Positions 6,483-39,951 of a DNA stretch of 39,951 nt are shown here, in pieces. The notes beneath the pieces are model-generated. The model saw nothing but the letters and a program-made list of their open reading frames with translations, was not told the origin of the DNA and ran no database searches. The position numbers and the translations under genes were made by a program. Positions within the stretch are counted from its first letter, which is position 1; every line of letters starts with the position of its first letter. The DNA comes from Elusimicrobiota bacterium (lineage in GTDB: Bacteria; Elusimicrobiota; Elusimicrobia; F11). The stretch spans positions 1 to 39,951 of the forward strand of contig JBJXGI010000009.1 in NCBI GenBank assembly GCA_046153645.1, in the 5' to 3' direction.

Positions 6483-9400
6483 ATGAAAAGTTGTATCTTT
6501 TTTCGCTTTTTATCGGTTTGGTTATCAGCGATTTATTTTGCTACAAATTGTGCGTTTGCACATAAGCCGGAAACCAATATCTGGGACGAACGTCGTCAGG
6601 TGCAACTGGCGCAAGCCCCGATTGGTTCTTTAAAAAATTCTCCTCACGTTTTTAATCAGCTTCCACCCATTGGCACTTCACTTTCGAAAAAAATAACTGC
6701 TTTGGTCCCCCAAAAAATGAACCAGAGTTTACACCCTATTTTTCAGTCGCTTTCTTCCACCTATGGTTCTGTTCGGAAAATATCGGTTCCTCATAATGCA
6801 AAACCAGGAAAAATTCTTATTCATATTCAAGACGTTCACATGAATAAAGAAGCGCAAGTCAATATTGCCCAAGGAATTCAAGAATTAATAAACAAAGGCC
6901 AAGTGGATTTAATCGCTCTTGAAGGCGCATTTAACAACATTGATCTCTCCGCTTTCAGATCTTTCCCAGATAAAGAGATTGTTCGAAACGTGGCAGATTA
7001 TCTTCTTCGGTCGAACCAAATTTCAGGCCCCATTTACATGGTTTTGACGAGTGATAAAAATATTCCATCTATTATTGGGATTGACGATGAAAATCATTAC
7101 AACGCTAACGTTGCCGCTTATGTTGCTTCGAAACCGATGTTAACGTCTGTTAAAGAACGATTATCAAACTCACGCAATAAATTAACCGAAGAAAAATATA
7201 AAAATTTCAATGCTGACTTGTCACAGTTCGACAATGAAGTCGACGCCTATCGTCAAGGAACAATTTCGATGGGGGGTTACCTTGGTATCTTGAAAAATCA
7301 AATGACACCATTGTCTGTAGAGCTAACTCAGTTTCTTGACGCTTTTACCTTGGAATCTTCACTTGATTTAAAACGTGTTGAACGTGAACGCGCCTCTCTT
7401 TTAAACATTCTTCTGGTTCGTCTTAAGAAAAATGAAACCGCCGATCTTGTTAATGCCAGTTTGGCTTTTCGAACAGGTCATTTATCTCAAGGAAACTTTT
7501 ATAGCTATCTTCAAGAGCTTTGCGCAAATAAAGGTGTTTCTCTTGCTTCATTTCCCGCTTTGCGTGCTTACCTTCGTTATGTTTTATTGTCTGAAAATAT
7601 CGATGTTGAACATCTTTTTTCTAAGGTTAATAAAGCTGAGGTAGCAGCTTACGCTAGACTTACAAAAACACAGGAAGAAAAAGCGCTCGTTTTAGAATCC
7701 CAAAAACTTTACCTTACAGAAAAGCTGGTTGATTTTTCACTCACGAAAGATGAATGGAATGACTACAAGAAAAAATGTGCAGGGACATTAGATCTAACGT
7801 CATTTGAAAAATTTTATATTGAAGCCGAGGCGCGCGACCAAGCTATGGCTCAAAACCTCATTCGTGAAATGGGCAGGTTAAAGGCCCAGGTTTCTATTCT
7901 GGTAACAGGAGGCTTTCACTCAACTGGCATCACTCACCTTACAGAACAAGCCGGAATTACCACCATAGAGTTTGTACCTAAAATTACAAAAGTAGACACT
8001 GCCAAAGGCTCTTCTTACTTGAGTGTTTTCATGCAAGAAAAAACACCACTTGAAAAACTATTTGAAGGAAAGAAATTGTTCTTATCACAAAAAGTATGGA
8101 CAGGCCCCACACGTTATTTGGCCGGGGTCCTGGTTATGCTTCGTACTTTTTGGCTGCGTTTGGGAGACTTAAAAGGTCAATCCGAAATGAAAGAGCAGTT
8201 GGCGGTATTAACCGGCCAACCTGTCGACAATTGTTCTTTCTCAATTCAAGATGGGGATGCCAAGATGGACAACCAGACTGTTCAAATTACAGTTCGTCAA
8301 AATAAAAATGAAATTATTTCAGTTAGTCAAAAACCATCTTTCTTTTGGGTACCCTTCAGAGAATTTCAAGATACTTTTGCTATCGCACTTAAAAAAATAG
8401 ACCCTCTTAAATTTGTCATGAACCATCCACAATCGCAAGATATCAATGTGACATTAAAGCGTCTGTTGGGTTTAAAAGTGATGGGTACCTTGACTTGGAT
8501 GGGACTGGCCATTTCGCCCATCATTGTTGGTATGGCAGTGCTGTTGGGTGCCGGCTCGTGGGCCATGATTTTCTTTATTCTTTTTCGAATTAAAAATATT
8601 GATATGCGCATTGCCCATGTGATTTCCCATTGGATCCAAATGGCTCTTTTCCCGGAAGCGCGGTTGAGTGAAGGAAACAATAAAGAAATAAAAGCTGTGG
8701 TACGAGTACAAAAAACGAAGGAACTTATCTGGGATCCCGAACTGATAAAGAAAAGTTTCGAAAAACAATGGGAGCATTTTCCACCTGAAGATATGAGAGT
8801 TTCAAAGATGGAACCTGGTTACGCCGCGGTCGCAAGAGACCTTATCACTCAATTATCTCAAGAAGAAGTTTTTGATCTAACCGAAAAAAAATTCGCTGTT
8901 ATTGGTTTGTCGCTTGCAGAAATGATTGATAATTCTTTTCAGGCCAATGGAAATTCTTATGTTGGTGTTCGTGTGATTGGTATTCATGAGGAAGGGCACT
9001 TCCGTATTTATGTTCAGAACCCACAAGTAATCGACCTGAAAATTCTTTTAAATTCAGATCGATTGAACGAACTGTTGGCATTCTTAAAAATAGCCCACAC
9101 AGCGGTAACAACAAAAAATAAAAACTTTGTGGAAAACGAAAAAAATTTTCAATTTAAAGAGAGCGTTCTAACATGGTTGGACGAAGGTGCCATTCAAAAC
9201 TCAATTAAGCTTATTTCTGAAATACTAGAAAATAAACAATTGTCTGCTGAAGAAGAACTTAGCTTGGCCTTTGACTTCATAACGGGATATATGACGACCG
9301 GTCATGTGAATAAATTAAAAAATTATTACATAGCTGATCGCCCTATAGAAAGTGGCACTACAATGGGCATCGGCATGTGGTACGCACGGGAACGATTGGG

Positions 9401-12400
9401 GACTCAAGGCCTGGATTTAAAAATGCGCTTAGGAAACACTCCTCTTGAGCCGGAAACCGTTTTTGAAATTATTGTTCCTTATAAAAATAACACCGATCCC
9501 GCGAGTCCCTCTGAGCATCCTGGCGCCATCAACGACAGCTTCAACCGCTTTGTGATGCGGGTGGCGAATTTTTTTGGAGTAAGCACTAGCGGTCAATGGG
9601 CGGTAGTTGGTTTTTTTGAAGGGGCCTTTCGGCAAATGGGGTTTTATGTTTTGTTTCCAAGTATCTTTTTGGGAGTTTTTAAATTTTTGAATTTAAGTGG
9701 TCATTGGGCAATGGCACCACCCCTTATTGTTGGACTTTTCTTGTTTCTTTATACCGCTTTCTTTCTTGTTTTTTCTATCCGCTATTTCTATAAACAGCAT
9801 CTCAATAAAGGTGTCATTACTTTAACAGGCCCTGTCATTAATAATCCAAAAATGGCTCACCTATCCACGTGGACGGCCGCTTGGGGGTATATGGGGCTTC
9901 TCTTGGCCATTCCCGGATTTTTAATCGTCTTTTTTTCTTCAGATTTAGTAGGCATTATCATCGGGTGGTTATTTATTGGCATGGGTGTAATTATTGGCGG
10001 CTTTATGCATGGGAGAAAGAATTTTCATCTCTCAAAATTATCTGATAAAACAGAAATCCTAAAAATACCTCGAATCTCTTTTTACCGCGCTCTTAGTCAT
10101 TCATTTTTTGGGGATGATTTAAATAAATATCCTTTGACCGCTTCTGATCATCCAATTTTATTTTATCTAAGTTACTTCCCTCTTCTTTTTTCAATTACAA
10201 CAATCGGGTTTATGCTTTTTTTGTCTGCTGTTTTTGATGCGCCAAATTTCTTGTGGTTTATTAGCATTCTCTTGATTGGACCAGCTTTTACTTTTTCTGA
10301 ACTTTTAGCTGAAGGTCATGTCCCTTATATGGATGTATCTTTCTTGGTTTCTCGAACAGCGCGTCGCGCGATAAAAGAAAACAAGACAGGCATAGATCCA
10401 GACATCCAAACCATTTCAGATAATTTTGAACGTAAGACCGGTTGGAAAATCATCTGGCAAGAAAATGATTATATTCTTGCTGAGCTTGACTTGGACCAGA
10501 AAGAAATAAAAATGACACTGGGTTGGAAGGTTCCTCTCCAAAATAAAAAAGATATTGATAGTCGAAAAAGAATGTTCTTTGCCGTGCTCGAATCCGCAAA
10601 AAAATCAATAAAAAATGGTACCGGTTCTCAAGTGGACACCTTTAATCAACAAAATCCTCACACGCCTGGTGCCATCGCAAGCCCTCAGAATAAAATACTG
10701 GCCGCAGAAAAAGGGTTGGGTGCTGTTGGATGGAGAGAGCATCGAATCGGAATAGTTTCATATGTCTTCTTCGTTTTGGCCTATATGGGTGTTTACGCGT
10801 TGTTGGTAAGCCTTGGTTATCTCCCGGCAGCGCCGCCAGAAATGAGAGGCATCTTTTTTCTTTCGCTTCTTCAATCAACCGTTATTTTTTCAGTTATTTC
10901 CTTCTTAACTCTCCTTTACAAACATCACACTTATGGCGTCCTTCAAAAAGATCTAACGATAACAAGAAATTATTTTTCTGGAACGTGGGTGGCCTGGTCA
11001 GGTTTAATGATCAGCATCAGTATTATTTTTAGTGCTCTAAGTTTGACCCTGTTTAATCCAAACCTAATAAACGTTCTTACAACTATAGCTCTCAGTGTGG
11101 GGGGATATCTTCTTGGAGGATGGAACCATAGCACCATGAATTTAAGAGATACTGCCACTGTTAAAAACGAATTATTAAACGAAGTTGATCCAGCCACAGG
11201 TGCTATTTTGGAGACAACTTATCCACGTAGTCATATTCATGCGCACGGCATTTGGCATCAAACAGCGCATGTTCTCTTGCGAAGTCGAGATGGTCGTATT
11301 TTAATTCACGAGAGAAAAGACAATAGAAAAATAGAAATGAGCGCTTCAGGGCACATTGAAACAAATCATAGTCCGATATTTACTGCTCTTAAAGAATTGG
11401 AAGAAGAGCTTCAATTGATTCGATTGGGGATAAAAATTACTGCGGACCATTTAAAACCAATTTCATCGCCGTGGAATGAAGCTTTTTTTAGAAAGTCAAC
11501 ACAGGCTGAGATGGAAACCTCAGGTTATGGTGAAGATCGCATTTACCGATCAAAGTCAAAAGATAAATTTAATAATGAAATTAGTTATTTGTTTTCTGTC
11601 ACTATTGAAGATAGTCAAATGGATAAACTATTAGCTAAATTTAAACCCAATGAGGAAGTAAAAACCGTTAAAGCTGTAACAGTCGACACTTTGGTTTCTG
11701 ATATAGAAAAAAATCGATCAAATTACGCCAGTACTCTTCCACAATACTTTGAGGATCCTTTTGTTCGAACTCACGTGGTTAAAGAAATTGAAGACACTTC
11801 AATACTCGTTTCACTTGGCTCTTCGCTAAAAAAGAAAGTTGCTTTTATGGCCGCCTCCACCTTGATTTCAATGGCACTTTATGTTTTGTTTACTGTTATC
11901 ATTTCTCAAATAAATTTAAATTTTAAAGTCGCATACCCTATTGCTCTTTTTTGGGTCATAATTATTCTTCAGTTTGTGGGAAGCTTATGGGCCACTGTTC
12001 TTGCTTTTGGTTGGAAATGGGCCCTCACAAAAGAGTCGAAAGATAAACTATCTCTTTCAGAAATACGACAAGAAATTTTTGCCCGTTCTCTTCTTGCACC
12101 TCATTTTGCTGTTATGGCTGGGTTTTTATTATACGGTTGGCTTTTACCACTGATTAATTGGGGAAATTTTGATATGTACAAAGGACTCATTCTTCAAATT
12201 GCCATTTGCCCGTGGTTATTTGACGCAAATGCCTTTGTGTTGATTCGCCGATTTGCCAAACGCGTTATGGGGTTTACTCAGAATTATTTGGACGCAAAAA
12301 AAGAATTGCGTGGACTGGTGGTATTGGCTCTTTATTTCTTTATTCCAGGTCATATGATTGCAACTCAATTGGACCCTGTGTGGGCTGTGGCGACACTCAG

Positions 12401-13454: not shown

Positions 13455-13498
13455 ACCGGCCTGAATTAATAATTCACCTCGTTAATATAGCGCGATTT
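13209..13498 (+). repeat. 290-bp direct repeat, copy 1 (3' end of giant gene 1 plus trailer)
   Basis: Matches 20209-20498 at an offset of exactly 7000; I count 14 mismatches over the first 279 bp. Confidence 0.95.
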
Positions 13499-13625
13499 GG
13501 GATTGTTGCAAAAGTAAGCCTCCTCATTCGTCATTCCGACTCTTCCGTTAAATACAGTGGTCGATGAGGAAGAGGTAAGCCGGAATCCTGCAGCGTTAAA
13601 TGCGGAGGCTTTATTCGATAAACCC
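13499..13625. mobile_element. palindromic MITE/REP-like element or IS end
   Basis: Nested stems: AAGCCTCCTCATT (13516-13528) with AATGCGGAGGCTT (13599-13611), ATTCCG with CGGAAT, CTCTTCC with GGAAGAG; imperfect outer ends GGGATTGTTGCAAAA and TTATTCGATAAACCC. Confidence 0.6.
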
Positions 13626-13665
13626 ACCGTTATTTTCCGTCAAGGAACGATTTTATTTTTGTCCC

Positions 13666-14083
13666 ATGAGACTCAGCAGAAAACTCATTGACACCGCAAT
13701 ACACCAACGACAACTTAGAAGGGCCCAGATGCATTCTTCTATTACGATTTGGAAACGATTGTTCCGCTCGATCACGTCTTGCGACAACACAAAGAAAGCT
13801 TTCTGGTGAAAGAATCAGCAGAAGAACCGGAACACTGGAAGAAAAGCTTGGAGCAGGAAGAGCAATTGTGCTACAACTTTGATATAGGTTGTTCTGCGAT
13901 TTCATCTTGGAATCGCAAAAGTCGGACCACACGTTTTTCTATCGAACGAGGAAAAACATGAGTGATGAGAATATTCCGGTGATGTTCAATAAGATCGTAG
14001 AAGACGCAAAGCTGTGCAGGATCTTCAAACCGCTCGAGACGTTTGTGGATGCGAGCGTGGTCAGTAGAAAAGAAGCAGAGTGA
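13666..14083 (+). pseudogene. decayed IS1182/IS5-type transposase fragment
   Basis: Frameshifted pieces YDLETIVPLDHVLRQ, LEEKL, and YRLFCDFILESQKSDHTFFYRTRKNM...MFNKIV...FVDASVV resemble the N-terminal, PDHS and first-catalytic-Asp regions of these transposases; internal stop, truncated. Confidence 0.7.
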
Positions 14084-14234
14084 GCGAAGCGGGAAGAAAG
14101 ATCGTCAACTCAACGCAGAGGCCGGAACAATAAAGAGTTGAGTCACGAATAATTAATCTGAACTGAAAACACCGCTCGAATTCAACTTCATCAAAAATTA
14201 AGGCAAGTTTCTTAGCTTTTTCACATTATTCCTT

Positions 14235-14240
14235 TATAAT
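14235..14240 (+). promoter_or_regulatory. -10 box TATAAT 6 nt before the ATG of giant gene 2; probable leaderless promoter
   Basis: Perfect TATAAT at 14235-14240; ATG at 14247. Confidence 0.55.
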
Positions 14241-14246
14241 TGAGTA

Positions 14247-20171: not shown

Positions 20172-20205
20172 ATTTTGAACCATCAAGTATAGCGCTTCAA
20201 AATAA

Positions 20206-20454
20206 ATGCAGGAAAATTTTGGATTACCAAATAAAAAACTAACCGCTCTATCAACTCGAGTTACTTGGATTCGTACCGCAAAAAATGGATGGGACCCACT
20301 CATCGATTCTGTTGTCCACCTTGGTTCGATTAAAATACCCGTGAGCGAAGTGCTTTCCTATCTTGTCGATTTAGCTCAAAAAGAAGCCGAACTTATTGAT
20401 CTTAAGATGAAGCGAGAGATCAAAACTCTATTTGAAGCCCAACGTGCAGCATAA
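20206..20454 (+). pseudogene. orphan copy of the last 81 codons of giant gene 1 (C-terminal cassette)
   Basis: QENFGLPNKKL...KTLFEAQRAA is nearly identical to the giant 1 C-terminus; no SD; preceded by AGCGCTTCAAAATAAAT, which matches ~13100-13116 of giant 1. Confidence 0.8.
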
Positions 20455-20498
20455 ACCGGCCTGAATTAATAATTCACCTCGTTAATACAACACGATTT
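20209..20498 (+). repeat. 290-bp direct repeat, copy 2
   Basis: Direct alignment with 13209-13498. Confidence 0.95.
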
Positions 20499-27400: not shown

Positions 27401-28466
27401 GGGAAATAAAGGGTTTATGTTACAGGATGAAAATGGAAGTAATTTCCTTACTAATGGTAAAATTGTTTTTCCTGTTGACCTTGCGTCCTATGAAAAAGCA
27501 ACAACAACAGAGATGTTTTTCCCTGCGGTTGTCCAAAATTGGATTTATGCCAATAAAACATATGTCCCTTCTCGTTTTATGAAGGCACTCTTGGCACTAT
27601 ATGACGAAGAAGTGAAGTGGGAAAAATCACTGCAAGAAATAACAAAACGAGCTAAGTATATGGATGCCATCGGTGTTCAAGAAAGTTTGGAACAAAAGCT
27701 GAGTGTTTTATCTCCCGAACAAATAGAAGAGCGTGAAATGTTGGCCATTTTAAGCACAGAAGCCGAAGAACGCGCGCAATTAGGAATATTATTAGACCGG
27801 TATTCACCCAAAGCCACAGCCGTTGGTTTGGAGGGGGATAATAAACGTAGAGCTGAAGAATTTGACAATCTCCGGAAAGTTATCTCAGATCACTATGAAG
27901 ATAGAACAAATATGCCAGAAGGAGAACTTTCAGAAATATTGCCGGCCATGGCGCTTCTTTCCCGAAATAAAAATGAAGTTGTTGGTTTAACTAAAATTGA
28001 AAAACCAGAAGCCCCTGATTTGAAAAGCTCCTTGGTCATGGTATACGCTTCTGGTTCAAAAACCGAAGCGGAAGTTGTGAATGAAGCCAACAAGTCGATG
28101 GGTGTTAAAACGGTGATTGCTTTGGAAGCGACTCTGTTTGATTCATTTAACAAAAAAGAAGAATACGCAAAACAAGGGATTTGGTTTGTAAGAAATGACG
28201 ACCAACTGAAATTCTCACTTGAATCAATTAAAGAGTTAACAGGGGTGGAACAACTGAAGGAATTAAACTTTGTTGTTTCACGCAAAACACGTTTTTCTGA
28301 TACAACACTCGCCTCCATTGAACTCCTGAAATCATCATCTCCCGAATTGGTGGGTCTCTACCTGCTCTTAAATGAGCTCAACCGCGTTGCCTTACGCATA
28401 AACAGTGTGCAAGAGTTAGCTGATCTTGCTAAATTCCAACAACGACTGATTGATTCGCAAGCTTAA
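24414..28466 (+). CDS. giant modular protein 3, C-terminal part: calcineurin-like metallophosphoesterase, degenerate cNMP domain, TM module, protein-kinase-like domain
   Basis: PDVHE/GDNINR/GNHE/HAG/GH (~24895-25750); kinase LGKGLTGTVF, VAVK, MEFAEG, QDENGSN, VDLA (~27020-27500); no signal peptide or SD of its own. Confidence 0.85.
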   Translation: MLSFDNRYDVFQLVSQWTLRMKISSNSKLEPINITALALTLQRYLEKKQALAELKENSLLSELIRKNPVSEDLRTMARTVVAGYGKVKNGGVNNETTLQLSSLRNYRDGKFFAHAGRLAQLSRRVAKSLIYVPLRSRKGDKKNKIGRVELPSFKNFDKDFTVIPDVHENIYGLLHTLESSGWIDAEGKLITNGNAGKILIQMGDNINRNVSANGLAVLQLWARLWQQAKEFNDATDDPTQHIQIHTLLGNHELDLLKWESQQLDTNFTTAESRSIAERARDLLQQMVRSGALLGAFYLGNPDLAAEKKTGALLVHAGILPDVLSRMKQEIGSANVTGVEMASYINQELIKAIGDENPSGYSQAVFNHFLFSKSAGRSKKEGPIVSSDPSGPFEAEFSPRKEGDSFEQFRKLGIIDGDGKKLLTDEEIIAKLEDLYGGLLIWVGHNFYSEDNIGIRHADTSGIILPAVLILDGGDGQVGKEFNEETQTAVIRRGQETFQIYVETEEKKKKPSSLQERGKWIKDIGSGILPREAVAFLDQRQQRSTRANNNLPVGQVANDQAERISLLDEILNKDGQKVNTRTVALIANKSQQIQSKKGQHVGSSNDYVFALKGEFTGNLRPGQFLPEGTLVESDSALVLLIDKKIFEETLENNAGFQNFMKEQGVPSLTTPSTLRIGRWFYRQLGLTRTDDEIRTEFAPVFEVLWFFGMILFPPLIYVFYRAHLTKPSSPNVSIGDLDRHWLQKGVALVYGVPLLFVYTLTALLFHFSSHENFLTFVQDSLPLLFVIIGLATLMNFRMHKIFNINSVKQGKPALTTRNSNNESPNVLNIPAMPENLATMNLEAFIYDNAVEFFKLSGKIIVGDKEDSETVKFLGKGLTGTVFRLQIQESDGQKRYVAVKVASSERFQFDVINFEALGKDIQIFTDLYAGSQTYESEIPDVLYLRYYGKVQLKNESEEKPLMIFMEFAEGLPLNELQPIIEDKALSIAQNTLKAIISKGNKGFMLQDENGSNFLTNGKIVFPVDLASYEKATTTEMFFPAVVQNWIYANKTYVPSRFMKALLALYDEEVKWEKSLQEITKRAKYMDAIGVQESLEQKLSVLSPEQIEEREMLAILSTEAEERAQLGILLDRYSPKATAVGLEGDNKRRAEEFDNLRKVISDHYEDRTNMPEGELSEILPAMALLSRNKNEVVGLTKIEKPEAPDLKSSLVMVYASGSKTEAEVVNEANKSMGVKTVIALEATLFDSFNKKEEYAKQGIWFVRNDDQLKFSLESIKELTGVEQLKELNFVVSRKTRFSDTTLASIELLKSSSPELVGLYLLLNELNRVALRINSVQELADLAKFQQRLIDSQA

Positions 28467-28513
28467 TTTAAACTGGAATTCTATCACGAAGAATCGTATG
28501 ATCAACATCTTTC

Positions 28514-28552
28514 CGGAGCGTAGCGTAGTGGTAGCGCGCACCCTTGGGGTGG
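28514..28552 (+). tRNA. 5' half of tRNA-Pro(GGG), truncated just after the anticodon loop (pseudo-tRNA / att remnant)
   Basis: CGGAGCG-TA-GCGT-AGTGGTA-GCGC-G-CACCC-TTGGGGT-GG, then unrelated sequence; no T-arm or CGCTCCGA acceptor 3' strand found; TATGAT -10-like box upstream. Confidence 0.85.
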
Positions 28553-28771
28553 CAGTTTTGGCCTCTATGAAAATGGACCGGTAGTCGATTTTCCGTCGGA
28601 GAGACGTTCGCGGGCTTTCCTGGGCTTTCGCGAGTTTTGGCCAAAAAAGTTACGTAGAAGTTACGCTACTCGCTTGGGCAAGCGTAGTTTTCGTATTAAA
28701 CCTCCGCTTAAAGTACTCCGATAAATGGCACTTATAACAGGAAGGAGATATTTCATTTGTGAGTACGTTCC

Positions 28772-28951
28772 ATGTCTGACCAACAAACGGATGTGCCAAT
28801 TAAGGTCTTTGAAAGTTTTCTCAATGCTCTTGGAGAAGCTGGTATATCTCCGGAAATAATAAACCGTCTAAAGAAGACGTTATTAGAAGAACACAAGTTG
28901 GGGGACCGGGCTCTCAAGTCGGCTTTATTCCCGGATGAGCCAAGCCAGTGA
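28772..28951 (+). CDS. 59-aa protein coupled to the ATPase (not in ORF track)
   Basis: MSDQQTDVPIKVFESFLNALGEAGISPEIINRLKKTLLEEHKLGDRALKSALFPDEPSQ; its TGA overlaps the ATPase GTG (GTGA). Confidence 0.7.
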   Translation: MSDQQTDVPIKVFESFLNALGEAGISPEIINRLKKTLLEEHKLGDRALKSALFPDEPSQ

Positions 28952-31404: not shown

Positions 31405-31532
31405 CAATCCACGCCAGGATCAAAAACGCCTCCAATTTTCAGTGTGTTTTTGGGAATTCTATGTAACAATTTGTTTACAAAAAGTTCCGTGAAAATTAAC
31501 CCCGATTAAAGGCGATTTTAAGGCACCTTTCG

Positions 31533-31538
31533 TAGACT
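31533..31538 (+). promoter_or_regulatory. -10-like box TAGACT 7 nt before the ATG of giant gene 4
   Basis: TAGACT at 31533-31538, ATG at 31546, no SD. Confidence 0.45.
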
Positions 31539-31545
31539 TAGTAGC

Positions 31546-34500: not shown

Positions 34501-37500
34501 CTAGTTTCCTTTTATAACGAAAAAGGGATGGACGGAAACGCAATTTTGGCTGCGGCGATTCAAATGGTTATTCCCTCCTCGGGAGCTTCGTTCGTAGGAA
34601 AGAGCGAAATTGCAGGCCTTCTCCAGGAGTTTCGAGAATCAAAAGGGACTTCTGACCCGCGAGACGACGTTCCCCTGCTCCTTCGCGATATTGATTTCGG
34701 TGGCAAAGCGAAAGATGCGCTGACGCTGAAAGTGTGGTCTTTGAAAGCGGGAGAAACTTACGATCCAGACGATGCAATTTCGAACATGTTGCAGAGCCTT
34801 CGACACAAAGATTTTGGTTCTCAGAATAAGGCAAGAGTCATTGCAGCCGACAAAGGAAAGCTAACGAAGGCGTTACTCAATTACTTTTCAAATCCAAACT
34901 CGGACTCGAGCGGAAAAGCACTTAGGGCCTTTTTCTCCTTCGCGTCCCACAACGATTTGTTGGGAGAGAAGATCGACCGAATTAACCCCCGTGAATTCCA
35001 AGGTCTACAGTTGCTTGAGCAGCTTTTTGTTGACAAGGATGCTTTGGCGTCGATTCTAAAAGATGTTTTGGAGAAAATGGATCAAAACGTCTTTCCCAAA
35101 GTGTCCATGCAGACAAATCGGCCAATTGCAAATCCCGGAAGTCTTGCAAGGCAACTCCAGGGTGTGTGGGGTAGCGGGCAACCGGACAAGAAAGATCGTG
35201 TTGGTAAGATTCTCAATGAAATATCCGCGAAAGACATCGAAGATAAGGTTTTACCGTTGATCACAAATAAATTGCTCACTGCGTCTATTAAAAAAATTGT
35301 CAAAGAAGGACGGCCGGCAAGGCCCATGCAGCCCCTCGAGATCATCGAACAATTATTTAAAGAACCTTTGGCTTTTATTCAGAGAGAAAAGACTAAATTT
35401 CAAGTTGATGATCTTAGTTCCAAAATGACGCTTTCCTTTCGTGTAGTCAAAGGAGTTCCCTTCTCTCTCTGGGGAATTAACTGCGGTGTTTGTATCGCGA
35501 CGGATGTTGATCTGTGGAAAGATCCCCATTTTTTTCTGCTCGCAATGATTGATCCTAACAGCAAAACGGTGGTCGGGTTTGCGCATCTTTATGAACAAGT
35601 GATCGAAGGGAAAAAAGTGTTGACAGTTCCCGGAATTGAGCCAGGTGTGGAGTTCTTGTCGGAAGTGAATCCGAAAGATGTCTATCCACTTATCGAAAAG
35701 GCGCTGGTCGAAATAGCTCAAACGGGAGGTTATGATGCCCTTTACTTTCCCGTCAGTGAAAATATTCTTTCCAATCGACCGGATATCGCAAAGATTATTC
35801 AAAAACGCTTCCATAATAAAAAAATAACTCTATCCGAGGAAATAGATTGGAATCATGAACCACAACCATATCCATTTTCGACTGTCTACGAAGTTTGGGA
35901 AAAGAATGATGTAACTCCCCGTGATCCGGCTCAGGCCATTTCAACAAAAGTTTTTTGGCGAGCTCTTTTCGGCAATGCGAAATATGGGGAAACATTTTTT
36001 ACTGTCGCGTGGGAAGGATTTCGCCTGTCGCTTCTGTGGATCATTTTGTTTTCGCTCGACCTAACGATCTCTTCTCAATTCTGGAACGCGCTGTTCGTGC
36101 TCCAACTGTTCAACTACGCGGTGTTCTTATCGCCGCTCGAACACAAAATTGTCTCACGCCAGCAAGCCGGTGTATTGGCGCTGTTCACCGTTGGTTATTT
36201 CATCTCCTCTCTTTTTCCCGTTTTCTCTCCGTTATTTTTTGTCGCGATCTTAGCGATCTTAATCATCCATTACGCTCACGACTCTGGAATGCTCCGCAAA
36301 TTTTTGCGGACGCGATGGGAAAGAAGGAGCGACGTTTTGAAGCCATCGTGGAAAGAACACTGGAAGGTTCTGAATCCGGTTTGGATCGTTGATTCGCATG
36401 AACCAAAAACTATTTCCGACTGGGTTCAACTCGGAATGGGATACGTTTTACTTCTTTCCTTCATTCATCTTTTCAATACCGGACTCGTTTACCTGTTGGC
36501 ATCGACCACGTCGTTGGATTTTTCCAAGATCGAACATTTGGCCGATGCACTTTCCTTCGCTGTCGGCGTTTTTCCGGCGCACATGACGGTGAATGTGATT
36601 GCGGTTCTGTTGGGTTGGAAAGCGCTCTCCGAACCTAAAAATAAAGAAGATTCGAAAAAACGTTTTATTGAAGGCATTGAAATCGGAGATCAGTTCGTTT
36701 ATCCACCTATGGGCCTGGTTACCGTGGTTTCCTTGGATACCGATGGGAAATCGGTATTTTTTAAAGAAGGTGCAATAACGAGCCAAGTTGCTTTAAAAGC
36801 GGAAGGAAGAAGATCCAAGGTCGAAGTGAATGCCGCCAACTTCTTTCTCTATAAAAAAAGCGGCAAGAAAAAAATCTACAGCGAAGGCTTAGAAGCGATC
36901 CGACAAAGAGCGATCAAAAGAGTCCCGGAGCTTTATATCGCGATCTACTTCGGCCTAATGGGGATTGATAACCGATTACGCTCAGGCAATCCCAATATTG
37001 ATAAAAATTCTTATCAGGAAGCTTTTTGTGACACCTGGGAAGAAGTCTTTGATGAAACAACCCGAATAAATCAAGCCTTGGTGACCATTGCCACAAAATT
37101 GGACCGTCAGCAACTCGATGAGAAGCTTATAACCTTCCTTAGGAAGTACTTCTTAAAAATATATTTTGAAACCGGGGAAGATCTGGTTTTAACGGGCGCC
37201 ATGAATTCTTACGGGGAAAGCTTTAAATCTGGCCAATCTGAAAAATTTAAATACTTTGTCAATTATCGTCGGAATTTCAATTTGTTCGGCGACAGGGGAT
37301 TTGTTCCCAAAGATGTTCACGATTATTTCATGGATTGGGTCATCAGAACCGGCTTACGGGGAATAAACAAAGCCGGGGGAAAAGAAACAATCACTGATGA
37401 GGAATATAGAAAAATACACGATCAATATTTCTATTTTTTGGCCCCGTATTTTTCGAAAAAGGACCCGAGACATCAAACCGACGATTTCTCCAAGTTAATA

Positions 37501-39951
37501 CTTAGGCAGAAGAAAGACTTTTCGGTTACCGACGACATTGCGTCTTTGGTGAATGATCGATTGGACCAGTTATCAAGCAGCCCGTTTTCCGAAGTCGATT
37601 TGATTGTCCCGGCCCCCGCTATCAACGCATTGACAAACCAAACGATCCCGCTTGCTCAGTTCGTTGCGCAGAAACTTCAGCGTCCATTGAGCTTGACCGC
37701 CATTCGCCAGATAAGGAAACGAAAAAGCCAAAAGAAACTCTCGACAATGCAAAGGCGAGCGTTCAACGCCGGTGGCGTGTTTGACGGAACCGCTGACGAA
37801 CTCGAAGGCAAAACAATATTGATTGTTGATGACAACGAAACATCCGGATTCACCGGCGCGGCGATGATGGTCGCCGCGTATGAAGCCGGGGCAAAAAAAG
37901 TACTGCTTCTTTCCTACGGCAGATCGTTTAAAAAGAATCAGCCGGAAACGCTTCCGCCTTCACCCTCCAAACCAGAAAAGAACTTCACGTTTTCTCTTGA
38001 GAATCTTGTTGCTTTGATTTTGGGATCGGATGTCTCCAGTCGAGCAAAGGTGGCCGCCATAAACTCTCTTCCCGTTGAACATTTGTATTCATCGATTCTG
38101 ACGGCTTTTTGGGAGATTTTAAGCGATGAGGAAAAGAGTCCGGGCCTTCAAAGTGTTATCCGTATTCATTTGGGGCGAGCGTTGGGTTTTGGTTCGTCAA
38201 GGGGAATGAGCGCAGCCACAATAAGAAATGTCCCTCTGTTTATGGACTTCATGCGATCAAAGGGGATTATAGATGCGTCCTCTGCTCTCTTAGAACAGAC
38301 ACGAATGCTAAAAGCCTACAAGTTCGCCGAGAAACGCATGAAAAGAATTAGAGAGAGTGTCAATAATCCGCAGGAACCTGGCCCATCGGATTCAGCCCAA
38401 GCCATCTCCACAAAATCCCTTTGGCATTTTTTCTTCGACGACGCGAAATACGGGCAGACATTGTTCACGGTTGCGTGGGAAGCATTTCGTTTGTCGGTTC
38501 TGTGGATCATTCTATTTTCACCCGACCTAACGATCTCTTCTCAACTCTGGAACGCGCTGTTCATGCTCCAACTGTTCAACTACGCGGTGTTCTTGTCGCC
38601 GCTCGAACATTACATCACCACGCGCGGGCAATTCGGTGTATTGATCCTTCTTACCCTCGGTTACCCTTCTTCGATTCTCCTGGTCGCTCTTGTCAACCCT
38701 TGGTTTTTAGTTGCGATTATTTCTCTTCTACTTATTCACTATCGTCATGATATTGAGCGGATAAATCCGCTTTTATCAAAAGCTTCATTAAATACCGTTT
38801 TCGATTTTAATCAGGACCAAAAGCGGGTGGTCTTTTTACTGGCAATTTTCCTCACTTATGTTATGACGCCGTCGCTTCTAATATGGGGTCCTAAGGCTCG
38901 TGTCAACGGCGTCCAGAGTTTTCACAATGCTAATTTAAAAGACTGGCAAGAAATTCCGGAACCGCCACGACGTCGAGGAAGAATAAATATAGATGGCGCA
39001 GATTCGTCTCATTCCTTTTCTGGCAGTCTCAATGATTTGCCTCCGCCATCGATAATTGGGCACGAAATATACGCAATGGATATACACGCGATAAAAGAAA
39101 TAAAACAATATGAATATGGGCCGCCAACTGCAGTGATTAGAGAGGTTATGATGCCACTCATTCCAGTTGAGGACATTTATATATATCCGTTTCCGAAACC
39201 GAGAAAGGAGGAGGAAGGAGAAAAAACGGTTGTTGAACGAGAAGAAATTCCCGCGCCTTTACCGCCGACCATTGAGCTTGGTCAGGGATTTGTTCAAACT
39301 CCCGCTCGAAGTTTTATTGAAGGTGCCGAAATAACCCACGATTTATTCCTTGAAGACAATCCTTTTTTATCCATTGCGGTTGTTACGTCATCGGAAGGGT
39401 TGCCCTTAAGGCTTTTCATAAAGAAGATTGAAGGTCATGAAGATTTGATCATTAGTAAAGCTGTTAGCTTTGGGGCAGCGACATCGGTTAAATTAACCTA
39501 CATACATCATCCAGCCGATCCCGAATACCGTGTGCTAGTTGTCGTGGCCAGATTGCTGTCGGGCAACACGATGAAGTATACAGTTACATTAAACCATGAG
39601 GAAAAAACTCTTATGCTTCATAGGCAAGGCGGTGATTTTAATGGCCGTCCTTCAAGTTCTTTTGAGAGGAGAATGTCACGAACGTCACAGTCCGTAACTC
39701 CCTCGTTACATAAGAATAATTCGGATCTTAATGATTCTGCTCAAGCCACTTTAACAAGATTTGTCTCTGCGTTTGCGGCTTTCTTCATCGCACATGGTTT
39801 GCCGACCGTTCATGGCAGTGCGCGGCCAATCACCCCCGATGTATCTCAAAGCGGATACCTACTTAACGAGCTATTGGGTCCTGTTCAAAACATCGGTGTC
39901 GGATCTCTTAAACAAAATCTTAACGCATTCAAGAGTGAAATAAAAGAATCG
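31546..39951 (+). CDS. giant modular protein 4 (at least 2802 aa, runs off the window): conserved N-domain, GNAT-like, TM modules, CarD-RID-like, ComF-like phosphoribosyltransferase
   Basis: Read codon by codon in frame 1 with no stop from ATG 31546 to the end; IATNCAFAHKPE..MWDERR, HVQDVH, ALEGA, GIDD, RDRAMS, GGFH; PRTase DLIVPAP...SQKKLS...ILIVDDNETSGFT...GAKKV (~37590-37925). Confidence 0.92.
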   Translation, partial: MKKRPLVRFLSATLTTIYIATNCAFAHKPEATMWDERRGAVKNSGPTQLAQIPVNLASRNISSVLHQLPSVEPSLPHQLEKSISKQAASQLVPVFKSLSGAHGSIQKILTPKNSRPGRIVIHVQDVHRNAEAQQNISKAIQSLIDNNVADMIALEGAFAPIDISPFRAYPLEATKKVANYLLRENRISGPIYAAFTSPKPIPRIVGIDDTVHYNANVEAYRQSISSLAEYKRQLNDLRTKLDDEKRKEFSRLLYDFDRQAQSYVDGNLPLGQYVERLSQQTSTPPLNVEIFLEAYRLESRLNFASVEAERGRLLSALLEKLSTSESQKLVAASMAYRLGNISHTDFYTRLKNLCAQNGIALSHFPAMNSYLQYVLLTDRIDAETLFRDIKTMESSAYSLLAKTEAEKRIVTESTQLSLTRKLLDFSLTKDEWSAYKEIKKGDLAFDLSTFESFYIEAEQRDRAMSENLLKAVTQSNAKVAVLVTGGFHSDGIDRQLMESGYMVVSFTPKMTKVDSENGSAYLSIFAQEKTPLDRLFEGEKLFLSEAPIPKGTQTIEALQKLAVEADGRAGLFETNYTRGTFGVLFGEDGEVAEVEFKQHIGAWLAENGLVEKIGDGFQQIGANCAEIAKAIAARYGFDIEALTETIKQAGSIENVKRVLSKATPFAPFNLVIRANPADPSRVHVTVSIYGIELNFGAGNAEGFVELHRVDLRSKSASLSIHKNSPAWTIGADVPSKGKRPGGGKDEIANLLERLNTAKTRDEREWVADLLLGEYESEGIQSEKKGRILDALVARASRFPADLLRRILDLAREQLLDELTKSLADVEEDPTKSWLEYLCDSNGILKLWGKRKDIELSLRSIVTHTTDYNRDQVFRAIFSDRLPELRKNGIDVVVYLQFCARILAQEKRLGYQIIEGVSDGLMEKTVDIGLPLDEQDRIFSFVSKFNSFEPILFNLYKRDETILLAPLFEFAQRILIDDVSPERADQLVSFYNEKGMDGNAILAAAIQMVIPSSGASFVGKSEIAGLLQEFRESKGTSDPRDDVPLLLRDIDFGGKAKDALTLKVWSLKAGETYDPDDAISNMLQSLRHKDFGSQNKARVIAADKGKLTKALLNYFSNPNSDSSGKALRAFFSFASHNDLLGEKIDRINPREFQGLQLLEQLFVDKDALASILKDVLEKMDQNVFPKVSMQTNRPIANPGSLARQLQGVWGSGQPDKKDRVGKILNEISAKDIEDKVLPLITNKLLTASIKKIVKEGRPARPMQPLEIIEQLFKEPLAFIQREKTKFQVDDLSSKMTLSFRVVKGVPFSLWGINCGVCIATDVDLWKDPHFFLLAMIDPNSKTVVGFAHLYEQVIEGKKVLTVPGIEPGVEFLSEVNPKDVYPLIEKALVEIAQTGGYDALYFPVSENILSNRPDIAKIIQKRFHNKKITLSEEIDWNHEPQPYPFSTVYEVWEKNDVTPRDPAQAISTKVFWRALFGNAKYGETFFTVAWEGFRLSLLWIILFSLDLTISSQFWNALFVLQLFNYAVFLSPLEHKIVSRQQAGVLALFTVGYFISSLFPVFSPLFFVAILAILIIHYAHDSGMLRKFLRTRWERRSDVLKPSWKEHWKVLNPVWIVDSHEPKTISDWVQLGMGYVLLLSFIHLFNTGLVYLLASTTSLDFSKIEHLADALSFAVGVFPAHMTVNVIAVLLGWKALSEPKNKEDSKKRFIEGIEIGDQFVYPPMGLVTVVSLDTDGKSVFFKEGAITSQVALKAEGRRSKVEVNAANFFLYKKSGKKKIYSEGLEAIRQRAIKRVPELYIAIYFGLMGIDNRLRSGNPNIDKNSYQEAFCDTWEEVFDETTRINQALVTIATKLDRQQLDEKLITFLRKYFLKIYFETGEDLVLTGAMNSYGESFKSGQSEKFKYFVNYRRNFNLFGDRGFVPKDVHDYFMDWVIRTGLRGINKAGGKETITDEEYRKIHDQYFYFLAPYFSKKDPRHQTDDFSKLILRQKKDFSVTDDIASLVNDRLDQLSSSPFSEVDLIVPAPAINALTNQTIPLAQFVAQKLQRPLSLTAIRQIRKRKSQKKLSTMQRRAFNAGGVFDGTADELEGKTILIVDDNETSGFTGAAMMVAAYEAGAKKVLLLSYGRSFKKNQPETLPPSPSKPEKNFTFSLENLVALILGSDVSSRAKVAAINSLPVEHLYSSILTAFWEILSDEEKSPGLQSVIRIHLGRALGFGSSRGMSAATIRNVPLFMDFMRSKGIIDASSALLEQTRMLKAYKFAEKRMKRIRESVNNPQEPGPSDSAQAISTKSLWHFFFDDAKYGQTLFTVAWEAFRLSVLWIILFSPDLTISSQLWNALFMLQLFNYAVFLSPLEHYITTRGQFGVLILLTLGYPSSILLVALVNPWFLVAIISLLLIHYRHDIERINPLLSKASLNTVFDFNQDQKRVVFLLAIFLTYVMTPSLLIWGPKARVNGVQSFHNANLKDWQEIPEPPRRRGRINIDGADSSHSFSGSLNDLPPPSIIGHEIYAMDIHAIKEIKQYEYGPPTAVIREVMMPLIPVEDIYIYPFPKPRKEEEGEKTVVEREEIPAPLPPTIELGQGFVQTPARSFIEGAEITHDLFLEDNPFLSIAVVTSSEGLPLRLFIKKIEGHEDLIISKAVSFGAATSVKLTYIHHPADPEYRVLVVVARLLSGNTMKYTVTLNHEEKTLMLHRQGGDFNGRPSSSFERRMSRTSQSVTPSLHKNNSDLNDSAQATLTRFVSAFAAFFIAHGLPTVHGSARPITPDVSQSGYLLNELLGPVQNIGVGSLKQNLNAFKSEIKES
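35923..36282 (+). repeat. internal TM-module repeat of giant gene 4, copy 1
   Basis: DPAQAISTK...FTVAWEGFRL...VFLSPLEH...HYAHD; the core is nearly identical in DNA to 38389-38751. Confidence 0.92.
38389..38751 (+). repeat. internal TM-module repeat of giant gene 4, copy 2
   Basis: DSAQAISTK...FTVAWEAFRL...VFLSPLEH...HYRHD. Confidence 0.92.

Follow-up and report, generated by a model that had tools for sequence, protein, structure and literature searches.

A very large family of giant Elusimicrobiota proteins with a constant TIKI/Ere/ChaN-like head and variable cargo

The TIKI superfamily includes RRSP, EreA-C, Bcr135/136, ChaN, HopBA1, TIKI1/2 and TraB/PrgY/GumN. In PrgY/TraB-type proteins, a TIKI-like domain is followed by membrane helices. 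A set of two His, two Glu and one Arg has been described for RRSP (E3900, H3902, E3930, R4001 and H4030) and the pair His85/Glu113 for Bcr135, in the sections of the source drawn on here (PMC6254334). Giant proteins that combine a signal peptide and transmembrane helices with multiple enzyme domains, and whose function is unknown, have been reported from Omnitrophota (bioRxiv 10.64898/2026.06.07.730766; West-Roberts et al., bioRxiv 10.1101/2023.11.21.568195). In the parts of these preprints that we drew on, 'TraB' and 'Elusimicrobi' occur 0 times in the 2026 text, and West-Roberts et al. include Elusimicrobia only as downloaded comparison genomes.

Here we describe a 39,951-nucleotide stretch of Elusimicrobiota DNA (the window) with four long ORFs that share an N-terminal domain, the head, followed by divergent sequence, the cargo. 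These ORFs (five with the continuation of the third) very probably belong to a very large, lineage-specific Elusimicrobiota family of giant inner-membrane proteins. This high confidence applies jointly to the architecture and the family identity; in the best explanation as a whole our confidence is moderate. A full-text literature search found no paper describing the head domain.

Four window genes with a common N-terminal part

The long ORFs begin exactly at 6483, 14247, 20564 and 31546 and are referred to as P1 to P4; unless stated otherwise, all features lie on the forward strand. Their first ~535-550 residues align with 33-47% identity and have W34, R37, QDVHxNxEAQ, EG and GGFH in common. 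The last shared block consists of P522, L523, G529, K531, L532, F533 and L534, beyond which the alignment collapses. All four N-termini combine a K/R-rich stretch, a hydrophobic stretch and an AxA-like site, as in a putative signal peptide. A profile built from the four sequences recovered each of them at E 1e-280 to 1e-295, far beyond chance. The first-pass annotation, made from the DNA letters and their translations, had described four paralogs that share a signal peptide, a W-x-[E/D]-R-[R/K] motif and a ~500-aa domain ending sharply at (T/S)PL(E/D)xxxxGxKLFL; here the motif reads WxERR, and the domain comprises ~535 aa up to TPL(E/D)xxxxGxKLFL. The starts, the alignment and the profile confirm this description, and the absence of small immunity-type genes between the four also holds, as no convincing small ORF was found in the gaps.

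P1 (6483..13454, 2323 aa) consists of a putative signal peptide, the head, transmembrane bundles, two copies of a module A, a Nudix domain (11256..11711; PF00293, 27.5 bits, cut-off 21.1), a 9-helix bundle and a unique C-terminal domain. Module A comprises ~150 aa with ~4 hydrophobic helices and starts with PGAI. It is located at 9507..9962 and 10647..11111 in P1, the second copy being 53% identical to the one at 18930..19382 in P2; the transmembrane module found in both proteins (P1 ~1341-1561, P2 ~1497-1724) covers ~150-230 aa at this identity. The genome holds seven copies of module A in five ORFs, and a search of the Atlas with it gave no usable hit. The gap between P1 and P2 contains a degraded copy of a DUF772 transposase gene (13666..14094, no strand assigned; 76-77% nucleotide identity, no intact frame), of which an intact version is present at C33:50636-51334.

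In P2 (14247..20171, 1974 aa), the head (14247-15860) is followed by a transmembrane cluster, a long helical region devoid of Pfam matches, module A and a C-terminal 'cap' domain (19683..20168), which also occurs in three other head-bearing paralogs, always at the extreme C-terminus. Inspected by eye, the post-head module of P2 shows LETLFQ, FVVLH and HVVWN, to be compared with the CPBP motifs EExxxR, FxxxH and HxxxN. The Atlas gave an Rce1-like lead for it at 0.82-0.83, below the 0.9 mark. Pfam returned nothing for this module, hhalign against Pfam-positive CPBP modules gave a probability of 0.6%, and its AF2 model (pLDDT 55.8) was too poor for a fold search; jackhmmer started from a Pfam-positive CPBP module found only itself. 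For P1 residues 704-1085 and P2 residues 596-760, the only homologues of similar length were the proteins themselves.

An orphan 3' end of 290 nt (20209..20498) starts 38 nt past the stop codon of P2 and is 94.1% identical to 13209-13498. It corresponds to the last 81 codons of P1 (90% amino acid identity) with the same stop, plus 44 nt of the downstream flank of P1. The position of this 94%-identical copy directly behind P2 shows a recent exchange of 3' ends, and two more orphan 3' ends are found elsewhere in the genome.

P3 (20564..24439) is a 1291-aa ORF with a head (20564-22213) and two cNMP-binding stretches (the best at 22778-23005). It has no predicted transmembrane helix, so that its cNMP-binding domains would share a side with the exported head. 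It overlaps by 26 nt with a 1350-aa ORF in the +1 frame (24414..28466), which encodes a Metallophos domain (24891-25202; 24.3 bits, cut-off 21.5), three hydrophobic helices (aa ~699-790) and C-terminal kinase-like motifs recognized by eye only. This second ORF is probably the continuation of the cargo of P3. An A9 homopolymer lies between the two frames (24377..24385), and one A fewer would join them into a ~2,630-aa protein. One public contig (depth 2.7) spans the homopolymer, extends 15 letters beyond it and lacks one A there, which is a hint only; contigs from another run end before it or start inside it. The N-terminal 500 aa of the second ORF had no match in 11 same-family genomes. A non-family gene for an SMC/AAA_23-type ATPase (28948-31404, 818 aa) sits between the family genes at this point.

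P4 (31546..39951) runs into the contig end at 39951, so that the truncated ORF encodes at least 2802 aa, comprising a head (31546-33174), long soluble regions, two copies of a module B and a ComF/PRTase-like domain (37627-37899) that is below cut-off (Pfam E 1.6e-4; TIGR00201 E 1.9e-6). Module B is a transmembrane module located at 35908..36492 and 38383..38778, within which 35923-36177 and 38389-38643 form a DNA repeat with 81% identity.

The initial view that the cargo strings are unrelated past the border stands in so far as similarity collapses there, but P1 and P2 have the 53%-identical transmembrane module in common. Among the cargo domains that had been named, Nudix, the two cNMP-binding domains and the phosphatase (Metallophos) are supported by Pfam, and the PRTase scores below its cut-off. 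The HATPase, helical solenoid, kinase, GNAT-like and CarD-like labels were given to motifs seen by eye only; neither Pfam at E<=1 nor PDB sequence searches supported them, and we discarded the HATPase, kinase, GNAT and CarD assignments for the window. The phosphatase and kinase had moreover been placed in the third protein, whereas this part is encoded in the separate +1-frame ORF. An Rfam scan of the window gave no match, and scans for promoter and terminator consensus sequences remained at background level.

The head domain and its junction

In P1 the putative signal peptide and head occupy aa 1-534 (6483..8084), with D117-x-H119, E147, R451 and H479 as the catalytic-type residues. The heads of 26 full-length paralogs from the same genome are 30-52% identical to that of P1, and W34, R37, D117, H119, E147, R451, G476, G477 and H479 are invariant in all 26 when aligned. 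In an AF2 model of the head (pLDDT 80.3, pTM 0.74), invariant residues are found at the C-terminal ends of strands 111-117, 143-146 and 470-476, and the core is split by a helical insert of ~260 aa.

Comparison of the model with 48,161 chains using VIA identified EreC (6xcq, Z 9.0), ChaN (2g5g, Z 8.4), 2qgm (Z 8.3), HopBA1 (5t09, Z 8.2), 2rad (Z 8.0) and PMT (2ebf, Z 5.9). Four of the five best matches (Z 8.2-9.0) are members of the TIKI superfamily, although Z scores of 8-9 are moderate and just above background, since unrelated models often reach 7-8. The top four Foldseek matches were EreC/BcR135, with E-values of 0.03-0.07. At the sequence level, PF04187 (ChaN/Tiki) was detected below its cut-off in 6 of 41 own-genome paralog pieces (21.7-24.5 bits) and in several database relatives, the best of which (P0110) scored 27.0 bits against a cut-off of 27.7. 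None of the superfamily Pfam models PF04187, PF01963 and PF05139 reached its gathering score, the latter two giving no hit at all, and a PDB sequence profile search with the head returned nothing below E 0.078.

The spacing from His to Glu is 28 residues in the head, as in RRSP and Bcr135, and that from Arg to His is 28 compared with 29 in RRSP (the sections of PMC6254334 drawn on, for RRSP and Bcr135); the equivalence of the catalytic residues is thus one of motif order and spacing, rather than of an inspectable residue-level superposition. The first acidic residue of the set is Asp in the head, where the superfamily has Glu. Overall, the head very probably represents an unnamed and very divergent branch of the TIKI/erythromycin-esterase/ChaN/TraB hydrolase superfamily, with a giant-protein architecture. 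Whether the N-terminal domain belongs to a characterized family of fixed architecture, a question raised with the first-pass annotation, is therefore answered in part: the TIKI/Ere/ChaN superfamily is known, but the branch is unnamed and has no fixed architecture.

A junction motif with the consensus YLSxFxxEKTPLxKLFxGxKLFL closes the head; in P1 it reads EKTPLEKLFEGKKLFL (8037-8084). It occurs once per protein and in none of 1,504 other ORFs. In the AF2 model of the head, this segment has a pLDDT below 50 and is thus predicted to be unstructured. The motif is confined to cargo-bearing forms. Stand-alone heads of exported type (559-587 aa), found in the genomes G003 and G004, keep the signal peptide, FWExR, QDAH, EG and GGFH, and have neither the junction motif nor hydrophobic helices. 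Cargo modules are not separated by further copies of the junction motif, which rules it out as a cleavage site used generally between modules. A search of this genome for a recurring cleavage or 'punctuation' motif at module borders found none, nor an enriched 5-mer in such a role.

Family size, cargo and membrane layout

The genome contains 48 head-bearing ORF pieces (~40 genes), which account for 12.2% of its bases. The head is N-terminal in all 48 and, in 149 of the best 150 database hits, starts no later than about residue 50. Of 401 genomes sampled from the phylum, 94 carry it, and it forms 9,712 clusters (50% identity) in public data. The named carriers are free-living environmental MAGs; the head is absent from f2 (0/118), one of the largest sampled families, which has small genomes. 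Most post-head segments (29 of 40) are BLAST singletons, and 11 other same-family genomes had no listed match past residue ~736 of P1 or ~722 of P2. Together with the diversity of Pfam domains in the cargo and the displaced 3' end next to P2, these results bear out the original proposal of an undescribed family with a constant N-terminal domain and variable cargo.

Across the family the cargo is mostly orphan sequence interrupted by transmembrane bundles. What can be recognized is regulatory or metabolic, including sigma-70 regions, cNMP-binding and AAA+ domains, helicases, methyltransferases, Nudix domains and kinases; sigma-70 regions 2 and 4 occur in three own-genome paralogs. A hydropathy scan placed transmembrane bundles along the length of almost every paralog, with a cluster of 1-4 helices 40-150 aa behind the head in most of them, P3 and P4 not included. 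One paralog of 10,189 aa has eight evenly spaced clusters of 2+3 helices. Directly behind the head, an Rce1-like CPBP module was found in 3 of 39 paralogs (one above cut-off) and an M50 module in 1 of 39, and one database relative has a rhomboid domain. When helices were counted from the head to domains of known compartment in own-genome paralogs and 12 database relatives, about half of the cytoplasm-type domains fell on the expected side and about half on the side of the head, by this crude hydropathy measure.

Many paralogs also have a DNA element upstream in common. Of 19 genome-wide nhmmer hits (E<0.01), 17 are located at most 140 nt upstream of a family gene, 11 of these being seeds and six not. 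A weak match (31470..31531, E 0.46) precedes P4. Judged from this element, many paralogs of the family are probably co-regulated.

Candidate functions and comparison with known systems

We propose that a Sec-type signal peptide exports the ~500-aa head, behind which follow paralog-specific transmembrane bundles and soluble regulatory or enzymatic domains. The head might then act in cis on its own polypeptide, as a periplasmic peptidase or esterase, and cut or trim in the region of the junction or of the WxERR segment at the N-terminus. This step would govern how the membrane and cytoplasmic modules mature, are released or are turned over, amounting to a built-in form of regulated proteolysis. 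Cis action is suggested by the intact catalytic head kept in every paralog and by the presence of the junction motif only where there is cargo. The intramembrane-protease modules behind some heads and the sigma-factor domains further back would also fit a picture of regulated proteolysis. As a reading of sequence features, this mechanism is tentative: recognizable proteases make up only 4 of 39 post-head modules, and the existence of stand-alone heads shows that the head can work without cargo, so that a role in trans is equally possible. The cargo strings turn over fast through module duplication, replacement of 3' parts, frameshifts and decay.

A more far-reaching version, which we consider rather improbable, is that these are self-processing membrane polyproteins. 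The TIKI-type head would cut its own chain at the junction in the periplasm, alone or with embedded intramembrane proteases, and so release or activate enzymes and regulators on the cytoplasmic side, with the ~40 paralogs forming one regulon via the upstream element, possibly with feedback through the sigma domains. In a related scheme, the chain would be a true polyprotein, an 'operon in a gene': the head, embedded intramembrane proteases or both would cleave it at numerous sites and so yield separate membrane-anchored enzymes. The repeated units of transmembrane module plus soluble domain (module A seven times, module B twice, and the 10,189-aa paralog) and the protease-type modules (CPBP, M50, rhomboid) are in line with this. 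A junction motif present once per protein and module borders without a recurring cleavage-type motif in the genome are not, and multiple cutting seems hardly likely to us. Receptor-type signalling calls for no proteolysis at all. The head would be an extracytoplasmic ligand-binding domain or enzyme-sensor in a one-piece receptor with variable cytoplasmic outputs. A constant sensor with variable output is the usual logic of bacterial signal transduction, and much of the cargo is regulatory (cNMP-binding, HATPase_c, sigma-70 regions, GerE, phosphatases and AAA+). Moreover ChaN, among the best structural matches, binds haem as a ligand, and divergence of the heads to 30-50% identity would be expected of sensors for different ligands. 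Invariance of five catalytic-type residues in all 26 paralogs is, however, unusual for a pure binding domain. The receptor scheme also leaves the unstructured, cargo-specific junction motif without a role, and it sits poorly with the many plain metabolic enzymes in the cargo (hexokinase, PGK, adenylate kinase, GH77, GH18 and radical SAM). On this evidence we regard it as unlikely, if less so than multiple cutting.

The first-pass annotation had favoured a multi-effector platform, possibly for manipulating host or prey. In such a platform, the head would serve secretion or trafficking, carrying along variable C-terminal parts for delivery into host or prey cells. Several features recall such systems: a putative signal peptide, a sharp constant/variable border with a conserved motif reminiscent of VENN or DPxGL borders, many fast-evolving paralogs, an orphan 3' end behind P2 that resembles displaced CT cassettes, and fold relatives of the head among injected effectors (HopBA1 and RRSP) and in a domain of PMT. 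The recognizable cargo is nevertheless regulatory or metabolic, and neither the 42 own-genome pieces nor the 120 listed relatives gave a Pfam match to a known toxin, trafficking or autoprocessing domain. The gaps hold no immunity-like genes, the orphan fragment has no partner gene, and multi-pass transmembrane bundles would arrest export; the family is also absent from the small genomes of f2 and present in environmental MAGs. Delivery into host or prey cells is thus very unlikely. Finally, the giant frames could be artefacts of mis-assembly, missed stops or run-together genes, as 17 of the 48 pieces touch contig ends and one frame break lies at a homopolymer (the A9 run). Contig breaks are expected from paralogous repeats, stop-free frames of 1,000-10,000 codons are found in dozens of genomes, some of which are assembled into 1-5 contigs, and the heads are under clear purifying selection. 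An artefact can therefore be practically dismissed.

One unnamed domain heads ~9,700 public protein clusters and ~12% of this genome. With its catalytic site, junction motif and upstream element, it offers a single entry point to the giant membrane proteins of Elusimicrobiota. Processing of the cargo by its own head, if it occurs, would represent a novel mode of organizing bacterial proteomes; otherwise the family still ranks among the largest paralog expansions without an explanation in small bacterial genomes. Self-processing polyproteins, if real, would provide a bacterial counterpart of viral polyprotein logic over an eighth of a genome, and a handle on the unexplained giant proteins of both Elusimicrobiota and Omnitrophota. 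Domain shuffling can moreover be followed in the family as in a natural experiment, in which recent exchanges of 3' ends have left their footprints.

Polymorphic toxins (CdiA-CT, Rhs-CT and MARTX) resemble the family in having a constant N-terminal and a variable C-terminal part, a conserved border motif and displaced 3' ends, which is an analogy of logic only. Unlike them, the family has no toxin domains or immunity genes, its cargo is full of membrane helices, and the similarity between paralogs ends at variable points past the border. RTX, RHS, FHA and CPD hallmarks, already thought to be missing, were found in none of the 42 own-genome pieces or 120 listed relatives; likewise, Pfam detected no TPS/FHA, RHS/YD, RTX, PAAR, CPD or Rhs aspartyl protease domain in the window proteins and 42 own-genome pieces (E<=0.001-0.01). 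In regulated intramembrane proteolysis, a site-1 protease works with S2P/M50 (for example RseP), and a few paralogs likewise hold a periplasmic protease-like domain, an M50 or CPBP module and sigma-70 regions. Here, however, all parts would be fused in one polypeptide, in a minority of paralogs, and cleavage is only proposed.

The Omnitrophota giants have very long chains, a signal peptide, many transmembrane helices, and Nudix, hexokinase, methyltransferase and HATPase domains, as does this family; in the parts of the sources drawn on, that class is described only architecturally, so the likeness is one of layout (signal peptide, transmembrane helices and unrelated enzyme domains). The window proteins, in contrast, measure 1.3-2.8 kaa, and what defines the family is the head together with the junction motif and the upstream element; 'Tiki' occurs 0 times in either main text, and a TIKI head is not mentioned in the parts drawn on. 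With the TIKI superfamily the head shares a parallel-sheet alpha/beta core, an acid-x-His, Glu, Arg and His at strand ends in similar order and spacing, and the export seen in many members. It differs in falling below every Pfam cut-off, in its ~260-aa helical insert, in Asp replacing the first Glu and in the conserved WxERR and junction motifs that flank it. In contrast to the known members, it occurs in ~40 paralogs per genome, at the N-terminus of proteins whose length runs from 1,000 to >10,000 aa and whose cargo is unrelated.

Four giant paralogs and their shared head

The window lies in a genome of 2.63 Mb (105 contigs, 99.7% complete) and opens with genes for MiaA, HflX, PgsA, PlsY, GpsA, an HU-like protein and a MerR-like regulator, before the long reading frames. 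The four paralogs, all on the forward strand, are P1 (6483–13454, 2323 aa), P2 (14247–20171, 1974 aa), P3 (20564–24439, 1291 aa) and P4 (31546–39951, at least 2802 aa, cut by the contig end). Together with the forward-strand ORF that follows P3 (24414–28466, 1350 aa), they occupy 29,206 of the 39,951 bases. The HU/IHF-type DNA-binding protein and MerR-family regulator genes (5696–6383) lie immediately upstream of P1. Between the family genes is one non-member, an SMC_N/AAA_23/AAA_15-type ATPase gene (28948–31404, forward strand, 818 aa), whose product resembles PtuA, RecF and Rad50-type defence/repair ATPases weakly at its N-terminus; no partner nuclease gene was seen for it. Because G+C rises from 0.35–0.41 over 1–28000 to 0.44–0.50 from about 28 kb onward, this SMC-like gene and P4 differ compositionally from P1–P3.

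Alignment of the first ~535–550 residues of P1–P4 gave 33–47% identity. W34, R37, QDVHxNxEAQ, EG and GGFH are common to all four, and the last common block comprises P522, L523, G529, K531, L532, F533 and L534, beyond which the alignment dissolves. Each N-terminus runs from a basic stretch through a hydrophobic one to an AxA-like site, as predicted for a signal peptide. The first-pass annotation had described such a leader, a W-x-[E/D]-R-[R/K] motif and an N-terminal domain (here, the head) with an abrupt end, and these features are borne out. It had also regarded the cargos behind the head as mutually unrelated, which holds apart from a single relation detected by BLAST of the post-head parts: P1 and P2 share a transmembrane module of ~150–230 aa with about four hydrophobic helices, beginning PGAI (53% identity). 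P1 has a second copy of this module, and P4 has two copies of a different transmembrane module. As to the cargo labels, Pfam supports Nudix in P1 and two cNMP-binding stretches in P3. The phosphatase assigned to the third protein was recovered as Metallophos, but in the separate ORF at 24414, and the PRTase label corresponds to a sub-threshold ComF/PRTase-like match in P4. The HATPase, solenoid, kinase, GNAT-like and CarD-like labels drew no Pfam match at E ≤ 1 and no support from PDB sequence searches.

P3 stops at 24437–24439, and the following ORF begins at 24414 in the +1 frame, which is closed by a TAA at 24372–24374, immediately 5′ of an A9 run (24377–24385). Deleting one A from this run would place P3 and the 24414 ORF in register, giving about 2,630 aa. 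One public contig (run X4, depth 2.7, reaching 15 letters past the run) lacks one A at 24377 (A8); the contigs of a second run end before the A9 run or start within it. This hints, short of proof, at a run of variable or mis-called length, and the frame break could reflect sequencing error, phase variation or transcriptional slippage. A search of 11 other genomes from the same taxonomic family found no counterpart to the 24414 ORF's first 500 residues.

Family size, cargo and turnover

A profile of the four heads, run against the genome's 1,552 ORFs of at least 200 codons, identified 48 head-bearing pieces, with the head N-terminal in every one. They sum to 106,760 aa (12.2% of the genome), the longest open frame having 10,189 codons. 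Seventeen of the 48 reach a contig end, which puts the true count at about 40 genes and makes the family a main cause of assembly fragmentation. Across the phylum, the head occurs in 94 of 401 sampled genomes (69 of 293 high-quality genomes; 49 of 123 genera), including all those of families f1, f4 and f10 and 48 of 89 from f16, and is absent from those of f2 (0/118), f3 (0/47) and f8 (0/48). Full-length P1 found 19–44 matches in each of the 11 other same-family genomes. A pattern scan in which a single genome represented each prokaryote species gave 381 candidates, 294 of them confirmed, and the 80 loci listed from it are all titled as Elusimicrobia/Elusimicrobiota MAGs (fen, groundwater, sludge), 'Candidatus Obscuribacterium magneticum' among them. 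The head profile matched 9,712 proteins at E ≤ 1e-3 (6,404 at E ≤ 1e-30) among 1.84 billion cluster representatives; the best 150 of the 9,712 are 553–6,142 aa long, and in 149 the head begins by about residue 50.

The downstream domains are as variable as the first reading proposed. No Pfam family was found at E ≤ 0.001 in 19 of 41 own-genome pieces; the others include sigma-70 regions 2/3/4 (three paralogs), GerE, Metallophos, UDPGP, SNF2 and SF1 helicases, AAA_5 with VWA, two methyltransferases, HATPase_c, beta-propellers, M23, M50 and Rce1-like CPBP. Database relatives add S8 peptidase, rhomboid, dockerin, GH5, GH18, GH77, hexokinase, PGK, adenylate kinase, Glu dehydrogenase, radical SAM, IMPase, GNAT, glycosyltransferases and others. 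The module immediately after the head is Rce1-like in 3 of 39 paralogs (one above cut-off) and M50 in 1 of 39. By a simple hydropathy scan, nearly all paralogs have one to four hydrophobic helices clustered 40–150 residues after the head, with more clusters downstream; P3 has no such cluster, and the first in P4 lies about 470 residues after the head. The 10,189-codon paralog (C86:11315–41881; L045, L046) carries AAA_5 and VWA domains, and in its C-terminal half (aa ~4830–9500) hydrophobic helices are arranged as eight 2+3 pairs at regular spacing, with internal DNA repeats of 76–84% identity. Three relatives (P0122, P0051 and P0066) pair hexokinase with GH77 4-alpha-glucanotransferase, GH18 or 2-hydroxyacid dehydrogenase, metabolically coherent-looking combinations that hint at membrane-tethered sugar-salvage lines in some members.

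Cargo turnover is evident from several comparisons. Among the 300-aa segments following the head, 29 of 40 are singletons by BLAST, the other 11 forming four small groups; paralog similarity typically stops at the junction, continuing for 57–264 aa in some pairs. Among the best 150 matches listed for each of P1 and P2 in the 11 same-family genomes, none extends past residue 736 of P1 (some 244 weaker matches rank below those listed) or residue 722 of P2 (some 250 rank below), the best head identities among matches listed being 50% and 39% respectively. The last ~150 residues of P2 form a cap common to three other paralogs, invariably at the extreme C-terminus. Starting 38 nt past the P2 stop, 290 nt (20209–20498) are 94.1% identical to 13209–13498, the last 81 codons of P1 plus 44 nt of downstream flank, with 90% amino acid identity and the same stop. 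This copy is recent, since the P1 and P2 heads are only ~35% identical, and from its sequence has the appearance of a 3′ end that was displaced or transferred. Two further orphans were found: a copy of the 3′ end of the 10,189-codon gene ~700 nt downstream of it (93.8% over 194 nt), and one on contig C16 matching the 3′ end of a 4,429-codon gene on C29 (91.9% over 409 nt). At this C16 locus (C16:6151–8185, L140) the copy lies some 1.5 kb from a head N-terminal fragment that is 89.7% identical in nucleotides to the start of the C81 paralog; the arrangement resembles a family gene that collapsed or lost an internal part. The 793-nt P1–P2 gap holds a decayed copy (13666–14094; 76–77% nucleotide identity) of a DUF772 (IS5/IS1182-type) transposase gene; an intact one lies near a contig end (C33:50636–51334, L139).

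Many paralogs also share an element within the 120 nt upstream, GTTACAA..TTTACA followed by two TTAAK words about 11 nt apart, the pair lying some 10–60 nt ahead of the start codon. Bare TTAAK-N5-8-TTAAK occurs 365 times in the genome (both strands). Of 30 family starts, 14 have it in the 160 nt upstream, whereas by our own arithmetic its genome-wide density predicts about 0.3. An nhmmer model seeded with these 14 sites, which match it by construction, gave 19 genome-wide hits at E < 0.01: 11 seeds, 6 further family genes assigned by coordinates, and two sites (C87:10547–10603, E 5e-5; C11:23473–23528, E 3e-4) adjoining no recognised family gene. In the window, nhmmer gave a weak match at P4 only (31470–31531, E 0.46); by eye there is a partial pattern at P1 and none at P2 or P3.

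Nature of the head and its flanking motifs

In an alignment of 26 full-length own-genome heads (30–52% identity to P1), the invariant residues include W34, R37, D117, H119, A124, Q125, E147, G148, R451, G476, G477 and H479. The AlphaFold2 model built from this alignment (pLDDT 80.3, pTM 0.74) has an alpha/beta core (strands 95–101, 111–117, 143–146, 196–200, 470–476 and 493–499) split by an all-helical insert of about 260 residues (203–465). Comparison with 48,161 PDB chains by a method other than Foldseek placed EreC (Z 9.0), ChaN (8.4), Bcr135-like 2qgm (8.3), HopBA1 (8.2) and 2rad (8.0) at or near the top, the PMT C-terminal region scoring 5.9; the four top Foldseek matches were EreC and BcR135 (E 0.03–0.07). 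The scores for the predicted fold are moderate, yet the matches all come from one superfamily. Sub-threshold matches to PF04187 (ChaN/Tiki), seen in 6 of 41 paralog pieces as well as several database relatives, point the same way.

According to PMC6254334, the TIKI-family endopeptidase RRSP uses E3900, H3902, E3930 and H4030 with R4001, and Bcr135 has a His85/Glu113 pair. The head residues D117-x-H119, E147, R451 and H479, all at strand ends in the model, follow the RRSP order; all three proteins have a His-to-Glu distance of 28, and the Arg-to-His distance is 28 in the head versus 29 in RRSP, the equivalence being drawn from order and spacing. The head is thus probably an active, unnamed and divergent TIKI/Ere-type hydrolase.

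Two strongly conserved segments lie in regions of the model with pLDDT below 50: the WxERR segment (residues 27–63, directly after the signal peptide) and the junction motif YLSxFxxEKTPLxKLFxGxKLFL (residues 505–534), which occurs once per family protein and in none of 1,504 other ORFs. Other lineages of the phylum have stand-alone heads, whole proteins of 559–587 aa, which carry the signal peptide, FWExR, QDAH, EG and GGFH, end shortly past the last strand, and have neither junction motif nor hydrophobic helices. The head can thus work alone, and the junction motif accompanies cargo.

Possible roles and relation to known systems

As some 40 paralogs each keep an intact catalytic set, and the junction motif is kept only with cargo, we tentatively propose that the head works in cis as a protease-type hydrolase, a reading we hold to be possible rather than probable. 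It would cut or trim its own chain at the junction or WxERR segment, and this cut may govern how the modules behind it mature, are released or turn over; M50, CPBP or rhomboid modules after some heads, with sigma domains further back, would fit built-in regulated proteolysis. Counting against this, the junction motif does not recur between cargo modules, P3 has no membrane helix between head and cNMP domains, and for a head-out topology our own helix counts from crude hydropathy agree only about half the time. The stand-alone heads allow a role in trans. The proteins may alternatively be receptors with the head as sensor, or true polyproteins cut at multiple sites; no punctuation-type motif was found in this genome. 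The least likely of the rivals is the multi-effector platform put forward in the first pass: no toxin, RTX, RHS, FHA or CPD domain was found in window proteins, own-genome pieces or the 120 database relatives listed, the absence of the last four hallmarks having been noted from the start.

We are confident of the constant-head, variable-cargo architecture and of the family's identity, and full-text literature searches (main texts) found no published description of it, in keeping with its earlier designation as undescribed. The expectation that the head would lie outside characterised families stands in part: by fold and catalytic motif it falls within the TIKI superfamily, yet scores below every curated sequence model. 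In overall architecture the proteins are like the 'multi-enzyme' giants of Omnitrophota, with signal peptide and transmembrane segments. The main texts of the two papers on those giants (bioRxiv 10.64898/2026.06.07.730766; West-Roberts et al., bioRxiv 10.1101/2023.11.21.568195) contain 'Tiki' 0 times each and mention no TIKI head; that of the former, a 2026 preprint, likewise has 'TraB' and 'Elusimicrobi' 0 times, and that of the latter has Elusimicrobia only as downloaded comparison genomes. We regard the head as a new branch of an established hydrolase superfamily, placed at the front of giant membrane proteins whose class has barely been described.
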